DNA of 64,000 nt, from the sequence record PX393109.1, one strand, 5' to 3'. The position numbers and the translations under genes were made by a program. The notes beneath the pieces were generated by a model. It was given only the letters and a program-made list of their open reading frames with translations. It did no database searches and was not told where the DNA came from. This stretch comes from a phage. Position 1 is the first letter of the stretch. Every line of letters begins with the position of its first letter. Below are positions 1 through 52,830 of this stretch, piece by piece.

Positions 1-756
1 CTCGACGAGCTGAACGAATACAATCACTGGAAATACGGTCTGAAGTACAACATCCTGTTCTACTTCTTCCTGCAGAAAACCGACACTCCGTCTGATAACT
101 GGAAGCCGAATACTCTGTATGCGGTGATCGGTAACGGTAAGGTGGCTAACGCACTGACCGACTTCATTACGGCGCTGGCGGAAGACTCTCCGGAAGTTCT
201 GGAAGGTATGCTGGATAAAGACATCAAAGGCTCTCCGGTTAAGATTACCGTAGTACGTGGTAATCAGGGTTCTGTAACCTTCACTCCGCTGTTCAGCAAA
301 GCTGATCCGGTAGTTGCAGATCAGACCTACCAGCCGCTGGCTCAGGCGTACATCCGTGAAGGCTTCGACAAAGACAAATACGTAGGTCTGGTCAAGCGTG
401 TCCGTAAAGATCTGGACGAAATTCGTTCCCAGCGTAAGGCTAAAGGTCTGCCGCTGGTTGGCGAAGATGGCTTCGAAGAGCTTAAAGCTGAAGAAGAGGC
501 TAAGGCCGAAGAATCTAAGGAAGAGTCCGGTGATCAGAAAGCCGACGACAAATCTGACGCTAAGTCTGATGTTAAGTCCGACGCGAGCTCTGCCGAAGAT
601 AAGTCTGAAGATAAAGGCGAGTCTAAAGAAGACGCTGCTGACGACAAATCTGACGCCAAATCTGAAGATAAAACTGAAGATGCCGGCGACGATAAGTCTG
701 ACGAAGACAAAGAAGAAGGTGGTGCTGCCTCTCGCTTCGCCAAATTCCGTAAATAA
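1..756 (+). CDS. hypothetical protein, 5' partial (continues upstream of window); Lys/Ser/Asp/Glu-rich low-complexity C-terminal tail; possible ssDNA-binding/accessory protein
   Basis: Open frame from window edge to TAA at 754-756; C-terminal KSDAKSD-type repeats; followed by hairpin terminator. Function is inference only. Confidence 0.5.
   Translation, partial: LDELNEYNHWKYGLKYNILFYFFLQKTDTPSDNWKPNTLYAVIGNGKVANALTDFITALAEDSPEVLEGMLDKDIKGSPVKITVVRGNQGSVTFTPLFSKADPVVADQTYQPLAQAYIREGFDKDKYVGLVKRVRKDLDEIRSQRKAKGLPLVGEDGFEELKAEEEAKAEESKEESGDQKADDKSDAKSDVKSDASSAEDKSEDKGESKEDAADDKSDAKSEDKTEDAGDDKSDEDKEEGGAASRFAKFRK
532..714 (+). repeat. imperfect tandem coding repeat (AAR-TCT-GAC type units encoding K-S-D/E-D-K)
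   Basis: Repeated gacgacaaatctgacgc / aagtctga units visible in sequence; gives rise to spurious alternative-frame ORFs 398..760(+) and 534..743(-). Confidence 0.6.
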
Positions 757-769
757 TTAATTAACTAAT

Positions 770-795
770 AAAGGGACTTCGGTCCCTTTATTTTT
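770..795 (+). terminator. rho-independent terminator (GGGAC-TTCG-GTCCC + T-run)
   Basis: Perfect hairpin with UUCG tetraloop followed by tttattttt. Confidence 0.7.
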
Positions 796-812
796 GACGC
801 TCTAGGTAGACT

Positions 813-1670
813 ATGAATGATATACCGTTAATACCAGTCGATTGTCAGTGGTTGACGCTTCGTAACTGGTTCGCAGCCGGTAAGTCTCAGGATTTAGGTC
901 CTACAGTCGCCTCTACTATCGGTAGTGTAGCGAAGTTGATTAAGGAAGACGGATATAGCTCCGAACTAATCATGCTGTACGATCGGGGTAAGTGGCGATA
1001 CAGACCTAAGGATAAGAATCCAGAGTATAAGGCCAATCGTGAGTACGACGAGAGTTTCGAAGCATTGTGGGCTGCTATGAATGTTCTTCACGAGCAGATC
1101 TTCCCGTCGCTGGGTATTAAATGTATCCAGGTGTCTGGTGTGGAAGCCGATGATTTAGGCTACTACTATGCTCATTCTGGTCGTCCGGTCATGTTACACT
1201 CACGAGACCGAGACTGGTACTTATCCATTAATGAGAATACTTGTGTCCTGAATCCGGATGATGGTTTAGTAGATCTTCCCTGGTTGATGAAGACCTACGA
1301 TCTGGATGATCATAAGGATTACCTCATCTACAAAGCCATCGTCGGGGACGGCTCCGACAACATTCCAGGAGTGGCTACTGGCTTGAAGACTGTTAAGGAA
1401 GCGATTAACGCTTACAAAGATGGTTCGCTAAGCCAATCGGTAGAGTTCCGTGTTCGTTCCAATATGGAGCTAATGCGACTCGACAGGATTCTGACTGATA
1501 CCGAAGTCCACAACATCATTAAGGAGCAGGAGTCTAAGGTACAGATGCAACAGCGTATCTTACCGACTCTGGAAGAGTTCTGTCCAGGTCACAGATTTCC
1601 TCCGTATTTCCATGGTGTACTGGGTAAGTACAACAGATGCGTTACGGCTAAGATACTGGAGTCGGCATGA
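813..1670 (+). CDS. 5'-3' exonuclease / flap endonuclease (FEN family)
   Basis: H3TH-type motif IVGDGSDNIPGV and acidic metal-binding clusters typical of T5 D15/T4 RNase H/Pol I 5' nuclease domain. Confidence 0.8.
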   Translation: MNDIPLIPVDCQWLTLRNWFAAGKSQDLGPTVASTIGSVAKLIKEDGYSSELIMLYDRGKWRYRPKDKNPEYKANREYDESFEALWAAMNVLHEQIFPSLGIKCIQVSGVEADDLGYYYAHSGRPVMLHSRDRDWYLSINENTCVLNPDDGLVDLPWLMKTYDLDDHKDYLIYKAIVGDGSDNIPGVATGLKTVKEAINAYKDGSLSQSVEFRVRSNMELMRLDRILTDTEVHNIIKEQESKVQMQQRILPTLEEFCPGHRFPPYFHGVLGKYNRCVTAKILESA

Positions 1671-4432
1671 AAATGTTAATTGCTGCTGATATTCATATTC
1701 ATGAGTTTCAGCAACATAACTCGGAAGGGTTTCGGCTAAAGCAGTTTATCAGATTGGCTCATCGTATGGTGGAGATGGGTAAGGAACATAAAGTTACTTG
1801 CCTATCTATCGCTGGCGACTTGGTGCATAAGGCTCAGCACGAGCCTAAGATTGCACATGCTACTTCCCAGTTTATGGACATCCTCGGTGAGCAGTTCTCC
1901 GAGATTTACTACATTCTGGGTAACCACGACATTAACTCCAAATCGGTAGATGCTGATCACTATCAGAACTCGCTGGTGCCGATCCTGGCTGGTAAGGCGG
2001 AGTATGTCGATGGTAAGATCCTGAACTTAGGTGGCCGTAAGGTCGCCTTCAGCGACTGGCGTCCGACTCAGGACTTTAGCTTCATCCAGGATAAAGTAGA
2101 TGTCCTAATCGGCCATATTACCCTGTCCTCGATGTTCGGTCAGGAGTTCGACGATACTAAGTACGATCTGGGATTTGCGGGTGACATCCACCGTCCTATC
2201 AGCATCGGTCATACTCACTCGGTGAACGTGCCTATTCCTCATGGGATGGGTGATAGTCAGGAAGGCAGTCTGGTACTGCTGGATCTCAAAGATCTTTCCT
2301 GGCAGCGGGTTCCGGTAGAGTCTGATTCCTTTAAGTACTTAAAGATGTACTGGGAAGATGAGGTTCCTGTCGGATTGGACAATTACCCACATCTGGTAGT
2401 TCGTGAACGAGCTCAGATGATGGATGCTTCACGCATCTCGGTTAAGTCTATTGATGTCGAAGAAGTTATCGATAAAGTCGTTCGGGCTAAAGGTCTTAAA
2501 GATATCCATGATGAGATGTCTACCCACGTTGATCGTTCCGAGTCGGTATTCGACCTCAACTTTACCTTAAATAGCATTAAGGTAGAGAACTTCCGTAGCA
2601 TCGATAAGTTGGAGCTGGACTTTAAGAAAGGTCTGACTTATCTCTACGGCGAAACCGGTAATGGTAAATCCTCGCTGTTACGAGCTCTGAACTACTGCTT
2701 AACTGGTAGCGACAGTCCTCGTAACGTGGTGAGACTCGGTCAGGACCATCTTCTGGTAGAAGTGATGCTGGAGTATGGTGGTCGTGAATTCCTGATCAGT
2801 CGCCATTGGGCTGGTGGTCAGACGTTCCGAGTCTGGATTGATGGCGATGAGATGGATGGCGGAAGTATTCGTGAGCGTGAAGCTAAGCTCTGGGAGATGC
2901 TGCCATTCCTCGAACACTTCGATCTTCTGTACCGCTCCCAGAACAGTCCTCCGTTCCTTAGCCAGTTCGGATTCAACGAGCGTATCAACCTGATAACGAA
3001 GATGCTTGGTCTTACCGTAATTAACCAGTACGAAGCTGTCGCAAAGGCCTCGGCTAAGAACTGTAAGGTAGAGATCGGTAATCTCCAGACTCAGGTTACT
3101 GCTCAGGAAGAAGTCCTTAAGACGATGGAGGATCACGATTTCTCCAGACTCAAGGACGTAAGTGATCTGGAAGAGGCTAAATCCCGAATCCTTCCTCAGA
3201 TTGATGATATTCGTCAGAAGATCCGGGAGCTGGGTAATTTGGATAGTAAGCTACAGAGTCTTCAGATGTTGGAAGACTCGCTGGCTGCGTTCAATATAGA
3301 CTTTAGCGAAGAAGAGGTTAACTCCGCACTCGCTAATGTCCGTGGCGAAATTACTCTGCTAGATGCCGAAGTGTCGGAAGTAGAAGGGAATATTCGTTCG
3401 CTCCATAACCAGAGCGAATCTCTAACTAAGGAGTTGACTCGTCTGGAACAGGAGTTGACTAAGTTAGAGACAGAAATGCGGAATATTCCCACTACCTGTC
3501 CTACCTGTAAACAGTCTCTTAAGGAAGAGGACATTAAGCAGGTACAGAGCTCTATCAGAAGTAAGATGGATGAGCTCGAGACACAGGGATCTGTATCTGT
3601 GTCTAAGTTGGATGCTGTGGAAGCTGAGATAAGTAAGGCTCCTAAGTCTGATGAAATCCGACAGAAGCTGGCTCTTAAGAATAACGAATTAGTCGAACTC
3701 CGTCGTAAGTCCGGTCTGCTAAACGATGTGGCCACTCTTCGCCAGAAGATTCATACCGTCAATAGCGATGTGGAAGTGCTTAAGAATAAGACTAAGTCCT
3801 ATTCCTCCGTGCAAGTTCTGGAAGAGGAAGTCGCTAAGCTGGAACAAGAGCTTATCGAGATTAACTCCACTATCGGAGCTATGGCTACTCTTCGTAGTCT
3901 TAAGTCTCGTATGGACGATGCTCAGACGAAGCTGGATAAGGCTAACTCTGAGCTGGCTACTCTTCAGCCTAAGTATCAGAAGCTGGTGGAGTATCAGAAT
4001 CTGTTCACTAATAGCGGTGACGTAACTGCTTCTATCTTTAAGGAAGTGGCTGCGATGATGACTGGTGGTGATATGGTCATCTCTACCGTTCGTGAACAGG
4101 CTAATGGAAATATCAAGATTGACTTTGATGTTCAATACAAAGTCGGTGAGTTCCTGATTCCGTATTCTGATCTCTCTGGTGGTCAGCAGAACCTGGTGGA
4201 CGTACTGTTCATCGGTAAGCTGATTAGCCTTAGTAAAGGTGCTGGATGCCTGATTCTGGATGAGTCGTTGAAGAATCTGGATGTGAATACTCTGGACATA
4301 GCTATCGATGCTCTCCAGGACATTCCGGTTAATCACATCATCCTGGTTACTCATGTACCTACGTTCCAGAGATATAATACTAAAATCGGTGCCTACCTTT
4401 CCAATAACGTAACTACGTTTATGGAAGAGTAG
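1667..4432 (+). CDS. fused SbcD(Mre11)-like nuclease / SbcC(Rad50)-like ATPase
   Basis: N-term calcineurin-like phosphoesterase motifs (ADIHIHE, GDLVH, GNHD); then Walker A GETGNGKSS, coiled-coil region with CPTC zinc-hook-like motif, signature LSGGQQ and Walker B LILDE at C-term. Confidence 0.75.
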   Translation: MKMLIAADIHIHEFQQHNSEGFRLKQFIRLAHRMVEMGKEHKVTCLSIAGDLVHKAQHEPKIAHATSQFMDILGEQFSEIYYILGNHDINSKSVDADHYQNSLVPILAGKAEYVDGKILNLGGRKVAFSDWRPTQDFSFIQDKVDVLIGHITLSSMFGQEFDDTKYDLGFAGDIHRPISIGHTHSVNVPIPHGMGDSQEGSLVLLDLKDLSWQRVPVESDSFKYLKMYWEDEVPVGLDNYPHLVVRERAQMMDASRISVKSIDVEEVIDKVVRAKGLKDIHDEMSTHVDRSESVFDLNFTLNSIKVENFRSIDKLELDFKKGLTYLYGETGNGKSSLLRALNYCLTGSDSPRNVVRLGQDHLLVEVMLEYGGREFLISRHWAGGQTFRVWIDGDEMDGGSIREREAKLWEMLPFLEHFDLLYRSQNSPPFLSQFGFNERINLITKMLGLTVINQYEAVAKASAKNCKVEIGNLQTQVTAQEEVLKTMEDHDFSRLKDVSDLEEAKSRILPQIDDIRQKIRELGNLDSKLQSLQMLEDSLAAFNIDFSEEEVNSALANVRGEITLLDAEVSEVEGNIRSLHNQSESLTKELTRLEQELTKLETEMRNIPTTCPTCKQSLKEEDIKQVQSSIRSKMDELETQGSVSVSKLDAVEAEISKAPKSDEIRQKLALKNNELVELRRKSGLLNDVATLRQKIHTVNSDVEVLKNKTKSYSSVQVLEEEVAKLEQELIEINSTIGAMATLRSLKSRMDDAQTKLDKANSELATLQPKYQKLVEYQNLFTNSGDVTASIFKEVAAMMTGGDMVISTVREQANGNIKIDFDVQYKVGEFLIPYSDLSGGQQNLVDVLFIGKLISLSKGAGCLILDESLKNLDVNTLDIAIDALQDIPVNHIILVTHVPTFQRYNTKIGAYLSNNVTTFMEE

Positions 4433-4436
4433 TTAG

Positions 4437-4462
4437 ATGGGGTCTTCGGACCCCATTTTTGT
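4437..4462 (+). terminator. rho-independent terminator (GGGGTC-TTCG-GACCCC + T-run)
   Basis: Hairpin plus atttttg directly after stop of 1667..4432. Confidence 0.7.
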
Positions 4463-4470
4463 GTAGATTA

Positions 4471-4560
4471 TTTTATTTTTCAAATAATGAAAAATAAAAC
4501 GATTTATGAGCCGTCTTTAAGCCCGTTCTTTTGGGTGGCGGGGCGTTCCCGCTGCGGCTC
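4471..4560 (+). promoter_or_regulatory. class B conserved intergenic element (TTTTTCAAATAA...AAAGCCCGTTCTTTTGGGTGGGGCG + GC-rich segment)
   Basis: One of 6 near-identical elements; upstream of small gene 4581..4823 with leader TAATTTGGGATAAAATC-ATG. Confidence 0.55.
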
Positions 4561-4580
4561 TTCTAATTTGGGATAAAATC

Positions 4581-4823
4581 ATGGCTATAATCAAAAGTTC
4601 ACGTGGTGGTGCTGTTCTGGTTGCAATCGCTAACTCTGCTGAAATTCAGCACACCCCAGGCCTCGATACAAAGTTCAATGTTCACTTCTCTAGCCAAATC
4701 GGTGGTTATGACTCCAGCTTCAATACCCTGTTCGAAGCGGTTATGGAATGCGCTAAGTTTTCCTGCAAATTTGATGCAGAAGAAGTGGCCGAGTTCCTGA
4801 AAGTCACAGGGGAAGCTGCATAA
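4581..4823 (+). CDS. hypothetical small protein (80 aa)
   Basis: ATG preceded by class B element and GGGAT SD-like leader. Confidence 0.5.
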   Translation: MAIIKSSRGGAVLVAIANSAEIQHTPGLDTKFNVHFSSQIGGYDSSFNTLFEAVMECAKFSCKFDAEEVAEFLKVTGEAA

Positions 4824-5086
4824 TGGTTAAGCTTCTCGAAGTCACTAAATTCAATACGGTGGTGGTTATGTCGGTAAACCTGAAATGCGCCATTGTATAT
4901 TACCCTAACCAGGATCAGTACGAAGTGGTTAAGGAGCCCATGAAGGAAGCTCGTGTGGTTATGTCGACCGAATCTGGTCGCTTCGCCAGGGAAATGGCTA
5001 AGGAGTTGGACTCCTTCTTTAATGGAACTCTGGATGAGTTCTTTGAGCTGTCTGGTTGGTACGCTCTTCCAGAACCGCTCCTTTGA
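4823..5086 (+). CDS. hypothetical protein (87 aa)
   Basis: ORF with ATGG overlap to upstream stop; class A motif overlaps its 3' end. Confidence 0.45.
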   Translation: MVKLLEVTKFNTVVVMSVNLKCAIVYYPNQDQYEVVKEPMKEARVVMSTESGRFAREMAKELDSFFNGTLDEFFELSGWYALPEPLL

Positions 5087-20957: not shown

Positions 20958-20982
20958 CGGAGGTTTATTTTTGGAGTTAAAC

Positions 20983-23900
20983 ATGTTTCTGAATCACAAT
21001 TTAGTTGGCGAAGTAGACTATGTCATTATCGGGGACGAGCGCGAGAATAATGATGCTCCTCCGTTTGCTGCATCGAATGCTGGCCAAACTCTTGATGTAG
21101 CGCTAATTACAGCTGGGGTACATAACAAAGTTGGTCTGATAGAGATCAACAGAGATGGTACTTTCGAAGAGCTGTCTAACATAGACGAAATCCGTGATAA
21201 GGATGGTCTCAACTTTTACGAGCTGTGTGAAAAGCATGGCGTTAAGCATGTAATGACTTTGGGTCGCCAATTAGCTGCGACTATATCCCCAGGCTATACG
21301 CATAAGAAGACTCTGGATAAGCTACTGAAGTTCCCTCTGGGTAACATACCGGAGTATAACTTTAAGCTAGCTGTAGTCATGCACCATGCCCAGGTTGAAC
21401 GTAATCTGGATTCTGATCCTGGTATACTTGATTCGTGGATTGATCGTTTTAAGTTTCTGGTATTCGGCCAGAAAGAATCCGAATATAATGTAGAGTGGGA
21501 ATTCGTCGACTGGAACGGCCTCCAGGAGTTCCTTAACGACATTATGTGGTCTGGGTACAAAGGCTATCTCGGCCTCGACTATGAGTCTAACGCAGCTGAT
21601 TTATTCTCGGTAGACTTCCGGATCACTGGATTCAGTATCGCTAAGAAGATTGGTGATAAGGATGCCAAGTCCGTATGGTACAATGTTACCGGTAAAGAGA
21701 CTCCGGAACAGCTAGGATTCTTGCGTGACTTCCTGGTTAAGTTCCAGGAGCAGATCGTGGCGTTTAACTGTCCGTACGAGATTAAGACTACGTGGCATTG
21801 GTTAGACGTATTCTGCAAGTTTATCGATGCGATTGTAACTCTGACTATGCATGGCGAACGGAGCTCGTTGAAAGATGCTGCTCGTCGTTATTTACATGCA
21901 GACTTCTGGGAAGGGTCGGTACACGAATGGAAGGATCGTTGGGCAGCTATCTTCAAGGATATGAAGAAGCGTTGTACTCCTGAGCAGATTGCAGAGATTC
22001 AGTCTGGCGAGTTCAATATTGAGCATCACCTAGCTCTTAAAGCTGAGTACGAGAAACTCGTGGAAGCGGCTCCGACTAAGGCGGCTAAGAATCGTATTCC
22101 TGTTAACTTCAACCAGTTTATGCTGGATAAGATAGCCGAACTATCGGAGGAGCTCGAAGAATCCGAGATTATTTACTTGGCATCGTTCTACCCATATGAG
22201 TGGGGTGCGATTCCTCGTGAGATTCTTGGGGAGTACTGCTGCTATGACTCCGCGTACGGTGTGTTCATCCACGAGATGTTTTACGATAAGTATAAGGATG
22301 GGTATAACGTATATATGTTACATCCATACCTGGCATCTATCTTCGAAGCTAACGGTATTCGTTGGGATGACGAAGAGGCGACTAAAGAGTACGACTATTG
22401 CATGAGCAAAATGTCGGAGCACTTGGTTAGCCTAATCCCTAACCTTAAGTTACCTCCTGACCAGATGCTTACAGCTCGCGACTTTATCTATCGAGAGTTG
22501 CCGTACGAGAACGTATGGTACACTCCTGGTGGACAAGAGCGCCGTAAGATGGTTACTACTCTGGCTGGGAAGATTGCTGATCTGTCAGGATTCTTCAACC
22601 CTAACAGTAACGATAAGGCTAATAAGGAGAAGTTCTGGAAAGCCTATCTTACTGATGAAGTAGAGATGTGTACCATGCTATGGTCTGTAATGGACCAGCT
22701 TAAGGTGCATGACTACTGGGATAAAACCCTGCTGGCGATCTCTAAGGGGTTCGTGCCTAAGGATTCGGAGAAGCTGGAGAGGGAATTCTTCCGGGAGTTT
22801 CCGGTAGATGAGATCTTAACCAGGATCATCCAATTCGGGGATACTGCTGAGTCTAAGCATGTTCGGGAGTTAATTGCCATGTGCGTCCAGGACGGTCTGG
22901 AAGCTTATGAAGAGCGATTCACGAATAAGTTTAAAGCGGATGTTCTCGATGCCCAATTGGCTATTCACCAGTTGATGTTGGGAGTTAATCCGGATGACGA
23001 GTCTACCTGGAATACATCGTTCCGTATGATGGTTGACCTGAAGATGTATAAGCGTCACTACAAACAGATTGCTACATACATTGATGGTAAGGTAGGACGC
23101 CAGACGGTATGGGCAGCTAAACTACGTGATGGTTTACCTCCGCTGCGAGTTCGTAAGTACGACTGGGATAATCCGAAGTTGCAGGATGGTGAAGATTGCT
23201 ACATCATGACTCCGGACTTTAACTCGTTGGCTGCGATTACATCTCGTTGGCAGGCAGGTATTCATAACGTTCCTGGCGACAGTACTCTGCGTAACATCTG
23301 GGTATCTAAGCCGGAGGGTGGCCTGTGGTACCACCAGGACTTTAGCCAGGCTGAGCTGGTGATGGTTAGCGTGTTCGCCGATGACTCGGATATGAAGAAC
23401 GTATTCTTATCTGGTGGCGACATGCACCGATTCGTTAGCTCGATTGCATACCAGAAGTCTGAACCTGAAGTAACTGATGTTGAGCGTAAGGGTGGTAAGG
23501 CGATTAACTTCGCATTAGTATACCAGTCTAGCCTTGAATCGGTAGCGATGGTTGCTACTGGTGGTGATATGGAGCGTGCTCAGAATCTGATGGACACGGT
23601 ATTCGGTAAGTTTACCGGTCTTAAGGCATGGATTGATGCTACCAAGAAAAATGGCTTCGAGACTGGGTATGCTTATGGTTACTTCGGTAACCGTATCAAC
23701 CTGGAAGGTACCAACGTTAACTCTACTTCGGTGAACTATCCTATCCAGAATACTTCGTCGATGGTTGCTGGCGCAGGTATGTACTTCCTGGATGAGGACT
23801 TTAAGCAGTCCAATATGGAGGCCGAGACTCACATCATGGTCCACGACTCCTTGGATACCACATCCGGAATCAACGAGATGTTCAAGGTGTTCCAGAAGAC

Positions 23901-24270
23901 TCGTGAGAATATGGAGGGGGCTATTCGTGAACTCTGGGATATGCCTATGCGCACTGATATCGAATTCGGTGCTCGGGGCGGTTCCTTGATGGGTCTGGAT
24001 GACTATGGAGTTAACGAAGATGGTTCCGGATGGCTGATCGTTGAGGGTCGTGAGTCTGCATTGGAGAAACTACTGGAAGCTCTCGATCAGTATAGCCAGT
24101 GGACTCCATACGTAGAGATCCTTAAGGAGAAGGAGAAGTTAAACTCTATAGCTAACAGCTTCAACTCCAAATCCGGTATTCGTTCCGACGGTACAGGCTG
24201 GGGATGTAAGTATATCGAGCTTAAGGCTAAAATAACTCTGGAGCCTAAACATGGCGAGAAAGCAGCGTAA
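20983..24270 (+). CDS. family A DNA polymerase (Pol I-like) with N-terminal extension
   Basis: Motif A DFSQAELVMVS, motif B KGGKAINFALVYQ, motif C VHDSLD; N-terminal region has DEDD-like exonuclease motif LGLDYES. Start at ATG 20983 (track start is TTG). Confidence 0.8.
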   Translation: MFLNHNLVGEVDYVIIGDERENNDAPPFAASNAGQTLDVALITAGVHNKVGLIEINRDGTFEELSNIDEIRDKDGLNFYELCEKHGVKHVMTLGRQLAATISPGYTHKKTLDKLLKFPLGNIPEYNFKLAVVMHHAQVERNLDSDPGILDSWIDRFKFLVFGQKESEYNVEWEFVDWNGLQEFLNDIMWSGYKGYLGLDYESNAADLFSVDFRITGFSIAKKIGDKDAKSVWYNVTGKETPEQLGFLRDFLVKFQEQIVAFNCPYEIKTTWHWLDVFCKFIDAIVTLTMHGERSSLKDAARRYLHADFWEGSVHEWKDRWAAIFKDMKKRCTPEQIAEIQSGEFNIEHHLALKAEYEKLVEAAPTKAAKNRIPVNFNQFMLDKIAELSEELEESEIIYLASFYPYEWGAIPREILGEYCCYDSAYGVFIHEMFYDKYKDGYNVYMLHPYLASIFEANGIRWDDEEATKEYDYCMSKMSEHLVSLIPNLKLPPDQMLTARDFIYRELPYENVWYTPGGQERRKMVTTLAGKIADLSGFFNPNSNDKANKEKFWKAYLTDEVEMCTMLWSVMDQLKVHDYWDKTLLAISKGFVPKDSEKLEREFFREFPVDEILTRIIQFGDTAESKHVRELIAMCVQDGLEAYEERFTNKFKADVLDAQLAIHQLMLGVNPDDESTWNTSFRMMVDLKMYKRHYKQIATYIDGKVGRQTVWAAKLRDGLPPLRVRKYDWDNPKLQDGEDCYIMTPDFNSLAAITSRWQAGIHNVPGDSTLRNIWVSKPEGGLWYHQDFSQAELVMVSVFADDSDMKNVFLSGGDMHRFVSSIAYQKSEPEVTDVERKGGKAINFALVYQSSLESVAMVATGGDMERAQNLMDTVFGKFTGLKAWIDATKKNGFETGYAYGYFGNRINLEGTNVNSTSVNYPIQNTSSMVAGAGMYFLDEDFKQSNMEAETHIMVHDSLDTTSGINEMFKVFQKTRENMEGAIRELWDMPMRTDIEFGARGGSLMGLDDYGVNEDGSGWLIVEGRESALEKLLEALDQYSQWTPYVEILKEKEKLNSIANSFNSKSGIRSDGTGWGCKYIELKAKITLEPKHGEKAA

Positions 24271-24520
24271 GGGTGGCCGAAAGACCTCCCCTAAAGTCTT
24301 GGTATCTAATCCGAGACGTCCTGGTAAGACAACTGCTCATAAAATAGCTATGGGCATTGATCCGGCTAAGCCTGGGTCTGAGAAGACTGTGGTAGCTAGC
24401 ATGGCTGATATGATGGGAAATAAGCCGTGTTTGGTGCTTACTACCAAGAAGGGTACCGCATTCTTCGCTCATAACGAACCTGCGCATGTAATGGCATGGA
24501 AGTATGGGCTAATTCGATAA
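24251..24520 (+). CDS. hypothetical basic protein (89 aa)
   Basis: ORF overlapping polymerase 3' end; Lys/Arg-rich N-terminus. Confidence 0.35.
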   Translation: MARKQRKGGRKTSPKVLVSNPRRPGKTTAHKIAMGIDPAKPGSEKTVVASMADMMGNKPCLVLTTKKGTAFFAHNEPAHVMAWKYGLIR

Positions 24521-24522
24521 AA

Positions 24523-24558
24523 CCGCTCTTTTGATGACTCGAAAGGCTGTTAAAGTGT
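24523..24558 (+). promoter_or_regulatory. class A conserved promoter-like motif, copy 9
   Basis: CCGCTCTTTTGATGACTCGAAAGGCTGTTAAAGTGT; followed by 5' UTR hairpin GATGGTG..CACCATC. Confidence 0.6.
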
Positions 24559-24632
24559 TTGGGCGAAAAGGGTAGCTCCCCTGATGGTGCCGCTTCACCA
24601 TCTAGCCCATTTTATTCTAAGCGGAGAATATT

Positions 24633-25358
24633 ATGACACATGAAGAGTTTCTGAGTAAGTATTACAACTTTACCACGCAAAGATGGATTTGTCCGTATTG
24701 CGACGATCCAGATACCTCTTATAATTATAAGAGATCATTTGGTGTCCATCTCCGGAAGTGCCACAATAAAACTGCGCTAGACATACCTAAGGATATTATA
24801 ACTGATCCTGGGTATGGCGTATGTCTAAACTGTGGAGGAGAGTCTACTTTCCGTGGATTAGTTCAAGGTCACTCTAACTTCTGCAGCACCACATGCAGTA
24901 ATAATTATCCTAAACATAGAGATGTCGTTAGGAAAATATTTGTAGAGAATCAGAAGGATCCAAATTTTAGATTAAAGAATGCAGAATCTATACGTAAAAC
25001 TTACTCTGATCCAGAGAAACGAGCTAGCTGTGATAGGCAGATAGCTCTAGCCTCTCTTAATGAAGAGTGCTATTTTTATATTTGGGTAGTGGACGACTCG
25101 TTCGTGAAAATAGGAGTGACTAACGATCCACACTCCAGGATACGTAATGTTATTCCCGAATTCTTTAAGATGAATAAATTAGATGCCACTGACTTAGAGT
25201 ATGATATTAAAGTATCTACTCCTAGAGTCGACTACGACCTAGTCAAGCATATTATCCAGAGTGGCCATACAGAAGTTAGGAGAATAGAATTCCTTCCGTT
25301 AATACGGGAGAAATTAGAAGCTAAACTTAAGGAAGGAGCTTCTACCCAGGATGACTGA
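24633..25358 (+). CDS. Cys-rich (zinc-finger-like) protein with T5orf172/GIY-YIG-like region; AT-rich, atypical codon usage
   Basis: CxxC/C2HC clusters at N-terminus; central FYIWVVDDSFVKIGVTN resembles the GIY-YIG-like T5orf172 core; heavy AGA/ATA/TTA codon use unlike flanking genes. Confidence 0.4.
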   Translation: MTHEEFLSKYYNFTTQRWICPYCDDPDTSYNYKRSFGVHLRKCHNKTALDIPKDIITDPGYGVCLNCGGESTFRGLVQGHSNFCSTTCSNNYPKHRDVVRKIFVENQKDPNFRLKNAESIRKTYSDPEKRASCDRQIALASLNEECYFYIWVVDDSFVKIGVTNDPHSRIRNVIPEFFKMNKLDATDLEYDIKVSTPRVDYDLVKHIIQSGHTEVRRIEFLPLIREKLEAKLKEGASTQDD

Positions 25359-25394
25359 TCATCATCCTTTTATGTCGACATATTGGAGAAAATA

Positions 25395-26846
25395 ATGACT
25401 AAGGCCCAAAATTTACTCACTCTGTTGATGAGTGAACAAATAGTGGACGAGGATCTAGCCTCGGTAGAGCGTTTCATCGACCAGCGTATGATTGATCACG
25501 CTGTCGCTGACATCGAGAAGAATGGTAAGAGCAGTCAATGGTATACTATGTTCCGCAAGATGCAGAATACCAGTGATGCTAACCTGCGTGACTACTATTC
25601 TTATCTTATGATGATGCCCCAGCAGATGGCTAAGAATTTGCTACGAGAGTTCGTACAGAAAGAAGTTCGTTCTGGTACGTTCTCTGCTGATGCATTCTTT
25701 GCGGAAGATGGCGAAGGTGGCTCTACCCAGCTGAACATGATGGATGCTTATGAGACTCCGGATGGTTCTGCTATGGGTATGTTCACAGAGTTGGCTGCCA
25801 GCAACAGAAATAATAACCCTGAAGAGATCACTACGATAAACGATTTTTTAGATAAGTTTATCAACCATCCTAAACTATCTTCCAGCTCTAAGCTAGTGGT
25901 AATTGCCCGATTGATTACTGGTGATGCGGCAGGTCGTGGTAGCATGACGAGTGGTGCTGGTCTGCAGCTCAACGAGTTTGTGGACGATCTACCGAAGGAG
26001 TATGATCAGGTCATGGCTCAGATCAAGCGTCTTATCGATGCTGGATTCACTATGGACCAGATTAACTCCACCATGATCTTACGTGGTGCAGAACGTACCG
26101 ACGATCAGGGTAATAAGAAGTCCGTAGCGCAGCTGGTGACTAACCATAAGATCAACCAGACTGGCGATAACGTAACTCAGGTAATTAAGGATCTGACTGG
26201 CCAGGATGTGAAGGTTACTCCTGACGGTCGCTGGGATCTGAAACCTGTTTACCGCTGGTTGATGGGACGATCTGTCAACGAAGATCTGTCTAAGGGAGAA
26301 GTCCCTGATATGATCAAAGACGATGGTGGTCGCTGGTACATTAAGTACAAGGACATGGTTTGGAACCCGACTAAGAACGAGTTCATGAATCTGTCCGAAG
26401 CATCCGACGATGATCTGTCCGCATGCTACACTACCGATATGGCTACTGCTAACTCCTGGAAGCTATCTGCTGCTGAGAGTACGGCTATGCCTGAGGGAGT
26501 AGACGAAGCGGCTCCGTCGGAAGTGCTCCGTCGCGTTAACAAGGTTATCGAAGTACTGATGGGCGGTAAAGGTTCTGTACGTACCTCCGACCTTATCAGC
26601 ACTCTGGTCATCTTCGTAGCGCTGGCTAAGCAGGTTAAGTCACCAGTCATTAAGACCTGGCCATCCCAGGATATTAAAACTGTGGCTCGTAAATACCTGA
26701 AGGATGCTAAGTCTGGTAGTCCTAAGGCTAAGCGCGGAGTACTAGCCATGATTATGTCTGTAATCATGAAGCTTAATCCTCGTCTGCAGCAATCCTGGCG
26801 TAAACAGTCCCAACGTATTACCCAGGCAATCAGCAAAGCTCGCTGA
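25395..26846 (+). CDS. hypothetical protein (483 aa)
   Basis: Long ORF with RBS GGAGAAAATA-ATG; no domain recognised. Confidence 0.5.
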   Translation: MTKAQNLLTLLMSEQIVDEDLASVERFIDQRMIDHAVADIEKNGKSSQWYTMFRKMQNTSDANLRDYYSYLMMMPQQMAKNLLREFVQKEVRSGTFSADAFFAEDGEGGSTQLNMMDAYETPDGSAMGMFTELAASNRNNNPEEITTINDFLDKFINHPKLSSSSKLVVIARLITGDAAGRGSMTSGAGLQLNEFVDDLPKEYDQVMAQIKRLIDAGFTMDQINSTMILRGAERTDDQGNKKSVAQLVTNHKINQTGDNVTQVIKDLTGQDVKVTPDGRWDLKPVYRWLMGRSVNEDLSKGEVPDMIKDDGGRWYIKYKDMVWNPTKNEFMNLSEASDDDLSACYTTDMATANSWKLSAAESTAMPEGVDEAAPSEVLRRVNKVIEVLMGGKGSVRTSDLISTLVIFVALAKQVKSPVIKTWPSQDIKTVARKYLKDAKSGSPKAKRGVLAMIMSVIMKLNPRLQQSWRKQSQRITQAISKAR

Positions 26847-30824: not shown

Positions 30825-31580
30825 ATGTCGCGTTTATGGTGGCTGGTATTACTTCGCGCTTTGATAGCAGGTAACCGAGCGACTGAGAGGTCGCTCTTTG
30901 AATTCTCTAATTGGGATAGACCAATGACCGCTAACTATAAGTTCCATGAAACATTCAACATTGCTAACACTGGGGACGAGTACATCGACTTATCCTTCTA
31001 TGATAGCGCACTAGATTCAGGAGATTTACGTTCGCTAGACCGTAACATTGCTCGTGTTAACAATAATCCATATGTTGCCGATTCTATCGTATCGCATGAG
31101 TATCTTCGGGTAGTTAACCCAACTGGTTATATGGCTAAAACTGGTGATACTCGTCACGAAGATAAAGAAACGATGGATCGTCGTCACATAATGTCCTTTA
31201 ACGAGTCTACTCTCGTAACGGACGATGATGGCGAAAGTCGTGTGGAATTAATCGATCCTGCTTCCATTAGCCCAGACCAGAAATCACCCATAGCGCGTTC
31301 TCGTGATCTGAAGCTCCTGGTGAACGGTGTAATCGATTACATCATGCAGAAATATCCTGCTAAACGTGAAGCTAGTTTGAAGATGTTTGCGTTTATGATG
31401 GTAGTGAGTGGTGCTGACCAGAGTGTCACACATCCTACTCTTCGTCGCTACATCAATCATCTTCGCCAACAACAACCTGTGCAGTTCAAATACATGCATC
31501 AGTATTGTGGTACTCAGCATGCGGCTAAAGTAGCTCGTGAAATCGTTCGTGAAGCCTATACTGTCGTCGCTAAGCCTTGA
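30825..31580 (+). CDS. hypothetical protein (251 aa)
   Basis: ATG preceded by TAATTTGGAG leader and class B element. Confidence 0.5.
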   Translation: MSRLWWLVLLRALIAGNRATERSLFEFSNWDRPMTANYKFHETFNIANTGDEYIDLSFYDSALDSGDLRSLDRNIARVNNNPYVADSIVSHEYLRVVNPTGYMAKTGDTRHEDKETMDRRHIMSFNESTLVTDDDGESRVELIDPASISPDQKSPIARSRDLKLLVNGVIDYIMQKYPAKREASLKMFAFMMVVSGADQSVTHPTLRRYINHLRQQQPVQFKYMHQYCGTQHAAKVAREIVREAYTVVAKP

Positions 31581-48943: not shown

Positions 48944-49234
48944 ATGAAATTATCAGCTATTGGTGGGTTTCTACCGGTAATTATGGTGATCGTTATAATC
49001 TTCATTTTAAGCATCTTCATTTTAAGCAGGTGTTACGACGAATCTGGAGCAACTAAAACCCTAAATAACAGTGGATTCACCAATGTAACGATACATGGGA
49101 GATCCTGGTTTAAGTGCTCCAAGAATGGTATGTTCTCCACTAAATTTTCAGCAACTAGTCCTACTGGCACCAAAGTAACAGGAGCAGTATGCGGAGGATG
49201 GTTAGCTGGTAATGTAATCAGACTGGATGACTAA
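48944..49234 (+). CDS. membrane protein (96 aa)
   Basis: N-terminal TM LPVIMVIVIIFILSIFIL; ATG after GGGAGTAAT. Confidence 0.45.
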   Translation: MKLSAIGGFLPVIMVIVIIFILSIFILSRCYDESGATKTLNNSGFTNVTIHGRSWFKCSKNGMFSTKFSATSPTGTKVTGAVCGGWLAGNVIRLDD

Positions 49235-49778: not shown

Positions 49779-50322
49779 ACTTAGGTTAGCTCCTCATCTG
49801 TACAATAGAATGCTGAAAGAGTTGATGGATGCCGTAATGACTTATGGCCAGACTCAGCAGCTCCGTACACATCTGGCTAAGGTAGTGGATCAATACGTAG
49901 AGCCGGACCATCCACATACCAGACCCGCTCCTCAGTTTTATCAGGCAACATGGTCTTGGCGTAGCTGGGAAGTAAATGCCGTAATTACTGCAGAAGATTA
50001 CAAACTACTAGAATCTCGTCCGGATGTTAAGGTAGTCATGAGAGACTTCCGTGGCTATGGTAACGATGAGGAGTTCTCCTTCTCAGATTTATCGTTTACT
50101 CCCATCGATGCTGGTATGGCATCTAACTTCGCGGTAATGAGTTGCTCAGTAAACGAAGAGGTACTATTCGATCTCTTATCCGCAGTTAAGTTACAGATTC
50201 AGAGAGATGAGGTAATTGAAGAGATCGGATGCAACCGCTGCGGTGGTGCTGGTCAAGCAGTGATAGACCATGGCGAGCTCGGTATTGAGCATATGGTATG
50301 TCCTCATTGCAATAAGAAATAA
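49765..50322 (+). CDS. hypothetical protein with C-terminal CxxC..CxxC zinc-ribbon (185 aa)
   Basis: GCNRCGG...CPHCNKK at C-terminus. Confidence 0.4.
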   Translation: MMNSKLRLAPHLYNRMLKELMDAVMTYGQTQQLRTHLAKVVDQYVEPDHPHTRPAPQFYQATWSWRSWEVNAVITAEDYKLLESRPDVKVVMRDFRGYGNDEEFSFSDLSFTPIDAGMASNFAVMSCSVNEEVLFDLLSAVKLQIQRDEVIEEIGCNRCGGAGQAVIDHGELGIEHMVCPHCNKK

Positions 50323-50895: not shown

Positions 50896-51111
50896 ATGAT
50901 GATGGGTATACTCGAAAATATTGTAACCCTTATCTGCATGACTGTTCTAGTATTGGGCCTTTATTATATGGGAGCATCATGGTGGTCGGCTATACCTGGG
51001 CTATTGGTATTCAATCTTAGTTCTGTTAAGTATAAGGAAACTAAGTCTGTTGGTCACCCAGAGAATACCACACCAACTGGGGAGGTTGCTGCTCCTCCTA
51101 AGGACAGATAA
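50896..51111 (+). CDS. small membrane protein (71 aa)
   Basis: Two hydrophobic segments; start uncertain (GTG 50884 possible). Confidence 0.4.
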   Translation: MMMGILENIVTLICMTVLVLGLYYMGASWWSAIPGLLVFNLSSVKYKETKSVGHPENTTPTGEVAAPPKDR

Positions 51112-51422
51112 TGGAACAGTTCCGCATTGAATTAAAGATATGGAGCGCAGATATCGGGGAACGCCCTCCGGAGGGGGACGTTAACTGGAGAACTGCCTAC
51201 TGCATTTTAGGTCCTGTTAATGAAGAAGACTGGACTTTAGATAAAGATAAGGCTACTTTGCTTAGTTATGACCGTCTGGATGAGCTAAATCTGTTCGGTT
51301 TAGCTGCAAGATGCCGTAATTCCCTACGTTTATCTAACTGGGAACTAGGCTCCGTGAACATAATTAAGCTGGTAGATCCTGAGCTTATCCATATCAACAT
51401 AACGATAGATAAAGAGTATTAA
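51111..51422 (+). CDS. hypothetical protein (103 aa)
   Basis: ORF, overlapping start. Confidence 0.4.
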   Translation: MEQFRIELKIWSADIGERPPEGDVNWRTAYCILGPVNEEDWTLDKDKATLLSYDRLDELNLFGLAARCRNSLRLSNWELGSVNIIKLVDPELIHINITIDKEY

Positions 51423-51432
51423 GGAGCTTAAA

Positions 51433-51666
51433 ATGGATAAAGAGTTAAATGGTGCAGAAGAAGATGTTCTGTACAAATTATTCTGGTTCGGACCAGCAGC
51501 AGACGGAGACCTACCATCTAAATCTGGAGCATCTGGCTTGGTAGATAAAGGATTAGCTGCCTGGTTTAAGGGTAATAATCTCTGCCCTAAGATTTATGAT
51601 GACCGTAACATGTGTATGCTTACTTCCCTTGGGGTAGACTTAGCCAGAAATAAGTATACTAAATAA
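51433..51666 (+). CDS. hypothetical protein (77 aa)
   Basis: ATG after AAGGAGCTTAAA. Confidence 0.45.
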   Translation: MDKELNGAEEDVLYKLFWFGPAADGDLPSKSGASGLVDKGLAAWFKGNNLCPKIYDDRNMCMLTSLGVDLARNKYTK

Positions 51667-51668
51667 AA

Positions 51669-51704
51669 CCGCTCTTTTGTACGGTCAAAAGGCTGTTAAA
51701 CTGT
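51669..51704 (+). promoter_or_regulatory. class A conserved promoter-like motif, copy 13
   Basis: CCGCTCTTTTGTACGGTCAAAAGGCTGTTAAACTGT; followed by 5' UTR hairpin ATAGAGCA..TGCTCTAT. Confidence 0.6.
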
Positions 51705-51778
51705 AGAGGTTATTCCTATAGAGCATCTGATGGTGCTCTATGTGAATAGTCTTAGGAGATATTAGGAGATATTAAGAT

Positions 51779-52138
51779 ATGTTTGAGAAATTAAAATCTA
51801 TATTTAAAACTGTTCCAGCAATTCCCTTACTGACTAAATCGGAAGAGCGACTAGCTTATGAGAATATGATCCGTACTGGGGACCCTACCGAATTTATCAG
51901 AATGTTGGATAATGACGAAATCCGGATGATTCGTAAAGATACATGGACTTGGGTAAGCGCTAATGGTGTAATCCATGTCTATAACGATATTTACGGTCCG
52001 GAAGTTAAGCTGGGAGGAGTAAGTGCGTTAATTGACTGTAATGGTGATGCTTACGGTCTATCTTACGAAGATGGTAAGAGAGTATATAACGCAATCTGGG
52101 ACTCCTGCGACCGCTCCAGGAGGATGGCTCATGTTTAA
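51779..52138 (+). CDS. hypothetical protein (119 aa)
   Basis: ATG after duplicated TTAGGAGATATTAGGAGATATTAAGAT. Confidence 0.45.
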   Translation: MFEKLKSIFKTVPAIPLLTKSEERLAYENMIRTGDPTEFIRMLDNDEIRMIRKDTWTWVSANGVIHVYNDIYGPEVKLGGVSALIDCNGDAYGLSYEDGKRVYNAIWDSCDRSRRMAHV

Positions 52139-52301
52139 GTTACTTATTATAAGTAGTATTGTTGCTCGGGATGCTCCATCAGTTCACTCGGTAATTGCGG
52201 AATTTGAGACTAAAGATCAAGCAGATCGTGCCTACGACAAAATGGTGGAATCTGCCAACCCTCAGTCCTGGGTATCTAACAAAGTAGTGAAACTTTACTA
52301 A
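52131..52301 (+). CDS. hypothetical protein (56 aa)
   Basis: ATG after GGAGGATGGCTC; overlapping upstream gene end. Confidence 0.35.
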   Translation: MFKLLIISSIVARDAPSVHSVIAEFETKDQADRAYDKMVESANPQSWVSNKVVKLY

Positions 52302-52830
52302 TAGCTGAGTTCTATTAAGGCACCTAACGGCCTAATAGTTGCTCTTCCGTAAAACAGATTCGATAGTCTGGGAAGAGCAGCTATATACTCTCATTAAGTA
52401 ATGCGTATACATAGGGCACGATTAAGTTACGTCTCCGGCTATGGTTGCATTACGAATAGTTAGGTAGTGTCCCTATTCAGATTGTCCGGAACTGGATAGA
52501 GGATGAAGGTATTGTCGAGACCTTAGTGGGGACTGATGCGAACTACACTAAGGTTTATACCCTCTCAACATTCTTAGGGGCATCTACGTAGTATACCTTG
52601 CGTCACGCGTAGGGTGAGCGAGTTAAAGCCCAAAGTGGCTTTAGGGAGCGAATCCCAGGGGGAGGCTCGGGTGGGCAAGGTCAGAGTCTCCGGAGGAGCT
52701 TAGTCTCGTGTACGCGGCGGCTCTGCCAGCCGCCGCTACACTCCAATTGGTTAAATTAGATAAGGGGCCGGTAGTTCCTACGTCCATTAGTTTAGGAGTT
52801 ATTATTTGATTATGTTGAGGAACACTATTA
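52302..52830. other. 529-bp non-coding region with multiple GC-rich hairpins (candidate structured RNA or cis-acting element)
   Basis: No convincing ORF/RBS on either strand; hairpins GCTCTTCC..GGAAGAGC (52341-52378), AAAGCC..GGCTTT (52626-52643), GCGGCGGCT..AGCCGCCGC (52714-52736); lacks class A/B motifs. Confidence 0.4.

Follow-up and report, generated by a model that had tools for sequence, protein, structure and literature searches.

A candidate free-standing homing endonuclease gene of the T5orf172 class in a polymerase-proximal slot of a phage genome

We analyzed the gene at positions 24633-25358 of a 64,000-nucleotide stretch of coliphage DNA (sequence record PX393109.1; the whole stretch is here referred to as the window). 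The gene encodes a protein of 241 amino acids (aa) and probably belongs to the T5orf172 class of free-standing phage homing endonuclease genes (HEGs); cleavage and homing would be expected from the sequence comparisons described below. The gene sits in a short spacer, with a conserved gene of 483 aa on one side and, on the other, a small conserved open reading frame (ORF) that comes after the DNA polymerase gene. An earlier note, made from the letters of the window alone, had described it as an AT-rich gene for a Cys-rich protein with a T5orf172/GIY-YIG-like core and had proposed a mobile or defense-related insertion.

Composition and modular structure of the gene

The gene and the modules of its product are located as follows.

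24633-25358, + strand: HEG-like gene with low GC content and atypical codons; ATG start, 241 aa, intact ORF
24690-24764, + strand: zinc finger 1 of the C2H2 type (C20, C23, H39, H44), based on conserved ligands, Pfam matches of homologues and profile matches
24822-24896, + strand: zinc finger 2 of the Cys4 type, 'GY..FCS..C', YacG/FCS-like (C64, C67, C84, C88), based on conserved ligands and matches of homologues
24909-25052, + strand: helical 'DPxxR/NPxI' repeats (residues ~93-140) joining the fingers to the nuclease-like domain
25059-25292, + strand: divergent T5orf172 (GIY-YIG clan) nuclease-like domain (residues ~143-220), based on hidden Markov models (HMMs), hhalign and PHROG 681

The GC content of the gene was 0.388, compared with a mean of 0.456 (standard deviation 0.021) over all 726-bp segments of the window, which placed the ORF among the lowest 0.4% of them. 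Only one other low-GC island was found within the 64 kb (~51.1-52.4 kb). The GC content at third codon positions (GC3) was 0.355, lower than the 0.462 averaged over the genes (z = -2.1), and an index modelled on the codon adaptation index deviated by z = -1.6. With the 67 other long ORFs of the window as the codon-usage reference, AGA and AGG made up 63% of the Arg codons (16% in the reference), ATA 56% of the Ile codons (14%) and TTA 40% of the Leu codons (16%). Pooled, these four rare codons were enriched with a Fisher p of 4.5e-10. The deviation was significant in both GC and codons, and the atypical composition that had been claimed was borne out by the calculation.

The upstream neighbor (20971-24270) encodes a family-A DNA polymerase, as the orthologue in the related contig L003 matched PF00476, and 363 bp lie between this gene and the 241-aa gene downstream. 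Of the features looked for in a HEG, foreign composition was thus found in GC and codons beside a conserved essential gene, and both the zinc-finger module (residues 1-130) and the T5orf172-like domain (143-220) were present.

An exhaustive phmmer search of 1.84 billion representative proteins yielded 120 remote relatives (best E 1.8e-12), nearly all of which aligned to residues ~15-130. In the alignment of 121 homologues each of the eight ligand residues listed above was at least 90% conserved, within the consensus C..C-x12-15-H-x4-H...YY...C..C...GY..FCS..C. The zinc-finger-like Cys clusters pointed out earlier turned out to be a conserved module of one C2H2 and one Cys4 finger. In a 14-member family alignment C64, C67, C84, S85 and C88 were invariant.

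For finger 1, 13 homologues matched Pfam zf-C2H2 and 12 matched ROS_MUCR, the family profile aligned with DNA-binding C2H2 fingers of known structure (E 2e-4 to 2e-3) and the single sequence gave a weak CTCF match. For finger 2, homologues matched Pfam YacG and zf-FCS_1, and the family profile reached YacG structures at an E of about 0.1. AlphaFold2 models based on the 14-sequence alignment gave a predicted local distance difference test (pLDDT) score of 80-95 for residues 1-130, with ~90 for finger 1 and 90-95 for finger 2. The linker helices were predicted at residues 93-107, 110-125 and 127-138 (pLDDT ~80). The relatives in the 14-member alignment hold expanded copies of homologous linker repeats, and in DUF7487 proteins this repeat region is the first half of the Pfam DUF7487 model.

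Among the 120 relatives, the nuclease domains found were DUF7487 (38), MTES_1575 (13), DUF559 (8), T5orf172 (7), MUG113 (7) and phage endonuclease I (2), as well as TnsA-like and HNH domains. Since the N-terminal part is joined to many types of nuclease, it represents a portable module for DNA binding in nuclease genes. The combination of such a module with an interchangeable nuclease is the design of HEGs.

The C-terminal half carries the segment 'CYFYIWVV..FVKIGVT' (residues 146-163). The motif residues of the domain are Y147-F-Y149-I150, V158-K159-I-G161-V-T163, R169, L188-E189 and G211-H-T-E214. Both beta-hairpin motifs of the GIY...YIG type are present, and Y149, K159 and G161 were invariant in the 14-member alignment. 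In PHROGs, residues 141-220 matched phrog_681 'endonuclease' with an E of 2.5e-6. Three relatives of similar size (P0076, P0083 and P0028) carry the same C-terminal domain; P0076 and P0083 were Pfam-negative at E <= 0.01, and P0028 had no T5orf172/MUG113 match at that threshold. An HMM of five C-terminal domains (alignment A3) picked nine more proteins among the 121 homologues, and seven of the nine were Pfam T5orf172 or MUG113 proteins above the gathering score and with matching coordinates.

A reverse, non-circular test used an HMM built from only eight Pfam-verified T5orf172 domains, with 2000 shuffles as control. This HMM scored the 241-aa protein at 18.4 bits over residues 143-190, compared with 10.7 bits for the best shuffle. 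When a four-member subclade profile was aligned to the verified T5orf172 profile with hhalign (96% probability, E 4.9e-9, 76 columns), the motifs YxYI, KIGxT, R, LE and TE(W) were all in register, and R169, which lies within the predicted helix 166-176, was aligned with the family catalytic Arg. Taken together, the transitive and profile-profile comparisons support the claimed T5orf172/GIY-YIG-like core: the C-terminal half is best described as a divergent T5orf172-type domain of the GIY-YIG clan, for which nuclease activity is plausible. The HMM search proposed earlier succeeded in its profile-based part and failed with direct Pfam models, as detailed below.

The catalytic Glu of the T5orf172 domain corresponds to E75 of I-TevI and E180 of Odn, a protein of ICP1. 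In the 241-aa protein the candidates are E214 in 'GHTEV' (family 'GRTEW') and E219 in 'RIEF', and the loop preceding this last motif is shorter than in the T5orf172 family. The low-pLDDT model of this half predicted strands at 147-154 and 157-163, helices at 166-176 and 201-209, a short strand at 217-218 and a helix at 221-235, an order that agrees with the GIY-YIG fold (beta-beta-alpha...alpha-beta-alpha). A fold search of BFVD with the low-confidence model gave weak matches to endonuclease, GIY-YIG and T5orf172 proteins.

Searched with tblastn, 50,697 phage genomes gave no match to the protein, and relatives are therefore not findable by simple similarity. A word-indexed search of 5.8 billion clusters returned one protein only, which was 99% identical, and the same search with the A3 alignment returned nothing. 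The module HMMs detected no paralogue of either module within the 64 kb.

The slot, its alleles and its flanks

Escherichia phage vB_EcoM_IME392 (IME392; record MH719082) is collinear with the window, at 95-97% identity over most of the window's length, and phage EP_H11 is related to the window as well. In record MH719082 the spacer and ~600 bp from the start of the downstream gene lie at ~23,900-24,700. Homology to IME392 breaks at 24553 and resumes at 25467, and the insert in between is the largest window-specific insertion relative to IME392 within the 64 kb. About ten related genomes or contigs were compared in all, with L003, L004 and L005 being metagenomic contigs. The locus is present in the Logan runs SRR13089947, SRR10902853/4, SRR26903504, SRR33788027 and SRR21194222. 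Three states of the slot were found.

Empty, a 135-139-bp spacer with two hairpins: IME392, L006, L007, L008 and L010
Occupied by this 241-aa gene: the window, L003, L004 and L005
Occupied by a different gene of 303 aa: EP_H11 (WBU87647.1; L001 3334-4245; GC 0.37 vs 0.46 in the flanks)

The slot was thus empty in five relatives, occupied in four genomes and differently occupied in EP_H11, which is the presence/absence polymorphism that the earlier note had proposed to look for. Together with the mosaic flank described below, it supports the claim of a mobile insertion. The empty slot also occurs in the distant L008 and L010, which are only ~65-85% identical to the window (~75-80% overall for some of the genomes with an empty slot), and the empty state is therefore ancestral. 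The gene was intact in all four copies, and those of L003-L005 differ from the window copy at only 4 nt of 726 bp (99.4% identical). The backbone of L003, the sole contig long enough for this comparison, differs from that of the window by ~3%.

The occupant of EP_H11 shares with the window gene the 79-bp leader and the first 11 codons (MTHEEFLSKYY), which are 100% identical throughout, and the right junction together with the initial ~80 bp of the gene that follows. The gene body is otherwise unalignable in DNA and barely alignable in protein. The Cys4 finger and repeat module was recognized in the EP_H11 protein with 31.8 bits (at most 8.2 in 1000 shuffles). The C2H2 finger of the 241-aa protein is missing there, and the C-terminal motifs are similar, 'VYLV..IKVGVT..R..LE..GWTEW'. 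A Pfam GIY-YIG match at E 0.026 and an hhalign match at E 0.004 are suggestive of a nuclease domain here as well. Two different genes of the same architecture use the one slot. We propose only tentatively, as an unlikely reading, that the slot is a 'landing pad' at which unrelated HEG bodies are exchanged in frame. If the leader and N-terminal peptide common to both genes act as a portable expression or recombination module, two rival HEGs would here displace one another in nature at a single site, and the targets and mutual immunity of both could be compared directly.

The elements next to the gene are the following.

24251-24520, + strand: conserved basic ORF of 89 aa at the left border of the slot, outside the element; present in every relative with 78-98% aa identity
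24554-24632, + strand: HEG-linked leader with a variant hairpin (24583-24602), the motif CCCATTTTATTCT (24606-24618) and the ribosome-binding site GGAG (24623-24626), 7 nt upstream of the 241-aa gene
25348-25368, + strand: terminator-like hairpin over the stop codon, AGGATGA-CTGATCA-TCATCCT followed by TTTAT
25395-26015, + strand: HEG-linked mosaic flank, the 5' part of the downstream 483-aa gene (whole gene 25395-26846)

The motif CCCATTTTATTCT was found once in the empty-site spacers too, and the stop-codon hairpin resembles the GGGA-CTGATCA-TCCC hairpin of the spacer in all five genomes with an empty slot. Pieces of the spacer thus flank the gene on both sides, CCCATTT(T)ATT(T)CT on the left and the hairpin with the CTGATCA loop on the right. 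This suggests that the gene entered by recombination inside the spacer and not by transposition.

The left flank is 98-100% identical to IME392 until the junction at 24553. On the right, the downstream gene opens with ~80 bp that are 100% identical in the four HEG-carrying genomes and only 46% identical to IME392. The right flank of L003 is EP_H11-like (98%) until ~25655 and IME392-like (97-100%) again from ~25836-25926. That of the window is divergent (78-93%) up to ~26016 and then 97-100% identical to IME392. The mosaic stretch is ~100-600 bp long with genome-specific breakpoints, and the segment 25395-26015 was probably co-converted. Tracts of variable length beside a near-invariant gene would be the expected trace of independent homing with co-conversion or of HEG-stimulated recombination, and the endonuclease may have caused them. 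The idea that the co-converted flank shares the AT-rich codon usage of the gene was rejected, as its GC3 is 0.49 compared with 0.48 in IME392.

The 89-aa ORF and the 3' end of the polymerase gene share 20 nt. No family was found for it in PHROGs or PADLOC, an exact look-up returned no record, and only three homologous clusters were present in the 5.8-billion-cluster database. Its homologues were used to reach the loci of the relatives. A scan of IMG/VR with the downstream 483-aa protein returned no loci, and this protein (483-486 aa in the different genomes) had no match in Pfam, PHROG or PADLOC. Its hypervariable N-termini (window 25395-25475) read MENLNKAAVLLSVAGFGEE, METLNKAAVLLTAAGFSEE, MQNVSKAATLLQVVGEDV, MQNVSKAEELLRATRQSED and MTKAQNLLTLLMSEQIVDED, each followed by the invariant VERFIDQRM.

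Downstream of the 89-aa ORF, the first hairpin has a different sequence from lineage to lineage but the same structure. The arms are GGTGGACGG/CCGTTCACC in IME392 (L002 3254-3290), TTGGAGATGG/CCATCTCCAA in L008 (~3780-3830) and GATGGTG/CACCATC in the window (24554-24602). It probably serves as a terminator or regulatory stem that is conserved through compensatory changes.

Proposed mechanism, known systems and alternative explanations

In the mechanism that we propose, the N-terminal C2H2 and Cys4 fingers with the helical repeats would bind a specific DNA sequence in genomes that lack the HEG, and the T5orf172 domain would cut nearby using R169 and either E214 or E219. In a mixed infection with an IME392-type relative, the empty allele would be cut in or near the spacer or at the 5' end of the downstream gene, and recombinational repair from the HEG-carrying genome would copy the gene together with a variable length of the right flank. 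The HEG-carrying allele would itself be protected, as other sequence has taken the place of its spacer and of the initial ~80 bp of the downstream gene. A course of this kind is known from the Seg endonucleases of T4 and resembles what was proposed for T5orf172 HEGs. Position of the target site, nuclease activity and homing are what we infer from the sequence data.

The best-matching known genes are the phage T5orf172 HEGs of ICP1, T5-like and other phages (Barth, Dunham & Seed 2023, PMC10448857). As here, these combine a zinc-finger terminus with a T5orf172 domain at the opposite terminus. They are free-standing and variably present, with zinc-finger DNA-binding regions, and cluster beside essential replication genes including DNA polymerase; they lie at boundaries of genetic exchange and show evidence of swapping of domains or cassettes (PMC10448857), all of which resembles the present case. 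In contrast to them, the domain found here is too divergent for Pfam and has Lys in place of the family His. The DNA-binding module consists of C2H2 and YacG/FCS-like Cys4 fingers with DPxxR repeats, and DUF723, DUF4397 or CapR matches were found neither in the protein nor in its relatives. Furthermore, a single copy is present in the 64-kb window, whereas the T5orf172 HEGs form an expanded family (PMC10448857).

Odn (gp88) of ICP1 likewise places a sequence-specific DNA-binding domain before a C-terminal T5orf172 domain; in Odn the Arg and Glu of the latter are conserved (PMC8263062). It provides the only biochemical proof of DNA cutting by a T5orf172 protein, and the conserved Glu is required, the E180A mutant being inactive (PMC8263062). 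Odn binds DNA through a RepA_N mimic that targets the origin of a satellite, whereas generic HEG zinc fingers are found here. Unlike in Odn, the genomic signatures described above point to self-propagation.

In SegA-SegG of T4 and in I-TevI a GIY-YIG catalytic domain is tethered to a separate DNA-binding region like 'beads on a string', and I-TevI, which PMC10448857 and PMC8263062 discuss, also has a zinc finger. Genes of the Seg type are intergenic and free-standing, and their products cut the neighboring gene at a distance with co-conversion of flanking markers. The asymmetric mosaic flank found here matches co-conversion of the Seg/I-TevI type. However, the catalytic domain of these proteins is N-terminal and of the PF01541 family, whereas the one found here is C-terminal, belongs to the T5orf172 branch and is not matched by PF01541.

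The same module of C2H2 finger, 'CxxC...GY..FCSxxC' and helical repeats is also found in DUF7487, DUF559 and MTES_1575 proteins, presumably HEG-like phage proteins. Their catalytic domains are restriction-endonuclease-like (PD-(D/E)xK, Vsr/TnsA-like) and not of the GIY-YIG/T5orf172 type. The DUF7487 model had no match on the 241-aa protein in the Pfam scan.

Several observations weigh against the HEG reading. In the Pfam scan no nuclease model was above threshold: the best match was MUG113 with an E of 0.28 and 12.2 bits (cutoff 22.3) over residues 158-173, PF10544 and PF01541 had no match, and Zn_Ribbon_TF was sub-threshold as well (E 0.096). The NCBIfam scan gave zero matches. Taken on its own, the sequence aligned to verified T5orf172 domains over just the first half of the domain, the His of the family motif 'LE..lH' is Lys193 here, and the placement of the catalytic Glu is ambiguous, with E214 in A3 and hhalign and E219 in the MAFFT alignment A4. 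The C-terminal domain was modelled at a low pLDDT of 28-68 with the 14-sequence alignment; the single-sequence AlphaFold model of the whole protein had a pLDDT of 36, and the alignment made only the N-terminal module confident. A Foldseek search of the PDB with the model returned nothing significant and retrieved no solved GIY-YIG structure. The sample of related genomes and contigs was small. In every lineage the downstream protein is variable over its first ~25 residues, so the HEG may not account for all of the divergence in the flank. Finally, homing has been shown experimentally for no T5orf172 HEG (PMC10448857).

Some of these points would also fit a decayed or domesticated HEG, whose zinc-finger module still binds DNA but whose C-terminal domain no longer cuts. 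The protein would now be a site-specific DNA-binding regulator, for instance of its own leader or the downstream gene. The contrast between a highly conserved, confidently modelled N-terminal module and a poorly modelled nuclease-like half that is sub-threshold in Pfam, a second half of the domain that aligns only with subclade profiles, and Lys193 in place of the family His would all be expected from such decay. There are precedents in the CapR repressor, a co-opted DNA-binding domain of a T5orf172 HEG (PMC10448857, PMC8096241), and in the autorepression by I-TevI. However, the protein retains the YxYI/KIGxT hairpin, R169 and, in the last motif, a Glu, and the ORF is intact in 4/4 copies. The His to Lys change is common to 3/4 subclade members and looks like a subfamily trait, and near-identical copies in diverged backbones together with the mosaic flank argue for recent mobility. 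We regard decay as rather unlikely on this balance. A nuclease acting in conflicts with competing phages, satellites or host DNA in the manner of Odn, or in superinfection exclusion, with its presence varying in an arms race, is improbable. T5orf172 domains with borrowed DNA-binding domains do act against satellites (PMC8263062, PMC10448857), and variable presence and foreign composition fit accessory 'weapon' genes as well. But the zinc-finger module is of the generic HEG type and no mimic of a replication initiator, and alternative HEG-like occupants and co-conversion-like tracts are predicted by homing and not by a weapon acting in trans. PADLOC models had no match at E <= 1 for the 241-aa protein, both neighbors and the EP_H11 occupant, which also leaves the 'defense-related' alternative raised earlier unsupported.

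It is very improbable that the gene is an ordinary acquired accessory gene ('moron') with a coincidental likeness to T5orf172 and a polymorphism that arose by recombination at a hypervariable spacer. The insignificant E-value in the direct Pfam search and the variation of both the downstream N-terminus and the spacer hairpin in all lineages could be read in this way. Chance likeness was rejected by the independent HMM and by hhalign, the N-terminal module is almost exclusively joined to nuclease domains, and the slot of EP_H11 holds another gene built in the same way. The identification of the gene as a new, divergent member of the already known class of free-standing phage T5orf172 HEGs is thus supported.

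An unannotated gene, an orphan in the databases, thereby gains a supported identity in a region where the slot neighbors and the EP_H11 occupant are annotated merely as 'hypothetical protein'. The gene would mark a T5orf172 subclade that is invisible to Pfam and characterized by the His to Lys change. With empty, occupied and alternatively occupied alleles, and with IME392 and EP_H11 as cultured coliphages, the locus offers a natural test bed for T5orf172 homing. For annotation and phage engineering, the polymerase-proximal spacer is a recombination hot spot.

Other regions of the window

The second low-GC island (51091-52367, minimum 0.384) contains small ORFs of 103, 77, 119 and 89 aa. It was rejected as a second HEG, as these ORFs had no zinc-finger or T5orf172 HMM matches and the island is conserved in IME392 (92-96% identity), relative to which it is no insertion.

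Further points of insertion, deletion or replacement between the window and IME392 were found at 4592-5072, 30828-30836, 43128-43204, 48946-49232, 49919-50263 and 51415-51434. IME392 carries extra sequence of ~290 bp at ~30.8 kb, ~980 bp at ~43.1 kb and ~590 bp at ~51.4 kb, and segments of the window at 4.6-5.1, 48.9-49.2 and 49.9-50.3 kb do not match IME392. These points may be other mobile or accessory cassettes. Additionally, positions 1-4592 of the window are only 88.6% identical to IME392, compared with 95-97% elsewhere, which suggests another recombination boundary near 4.6-5.1 kb.

The phage group encodes homologues of the beta and beta' subunits of multisubunit RNA polymerase, thymidylate synthase, dCTP deaminase and dUTPase. 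IME392 is listed in one paper among phages with a DNA polymerase like that of YerA41, which has hypermodified thymidine. Modified bases may be present in the genome and would be relevant to any endonuclease that acts on it.

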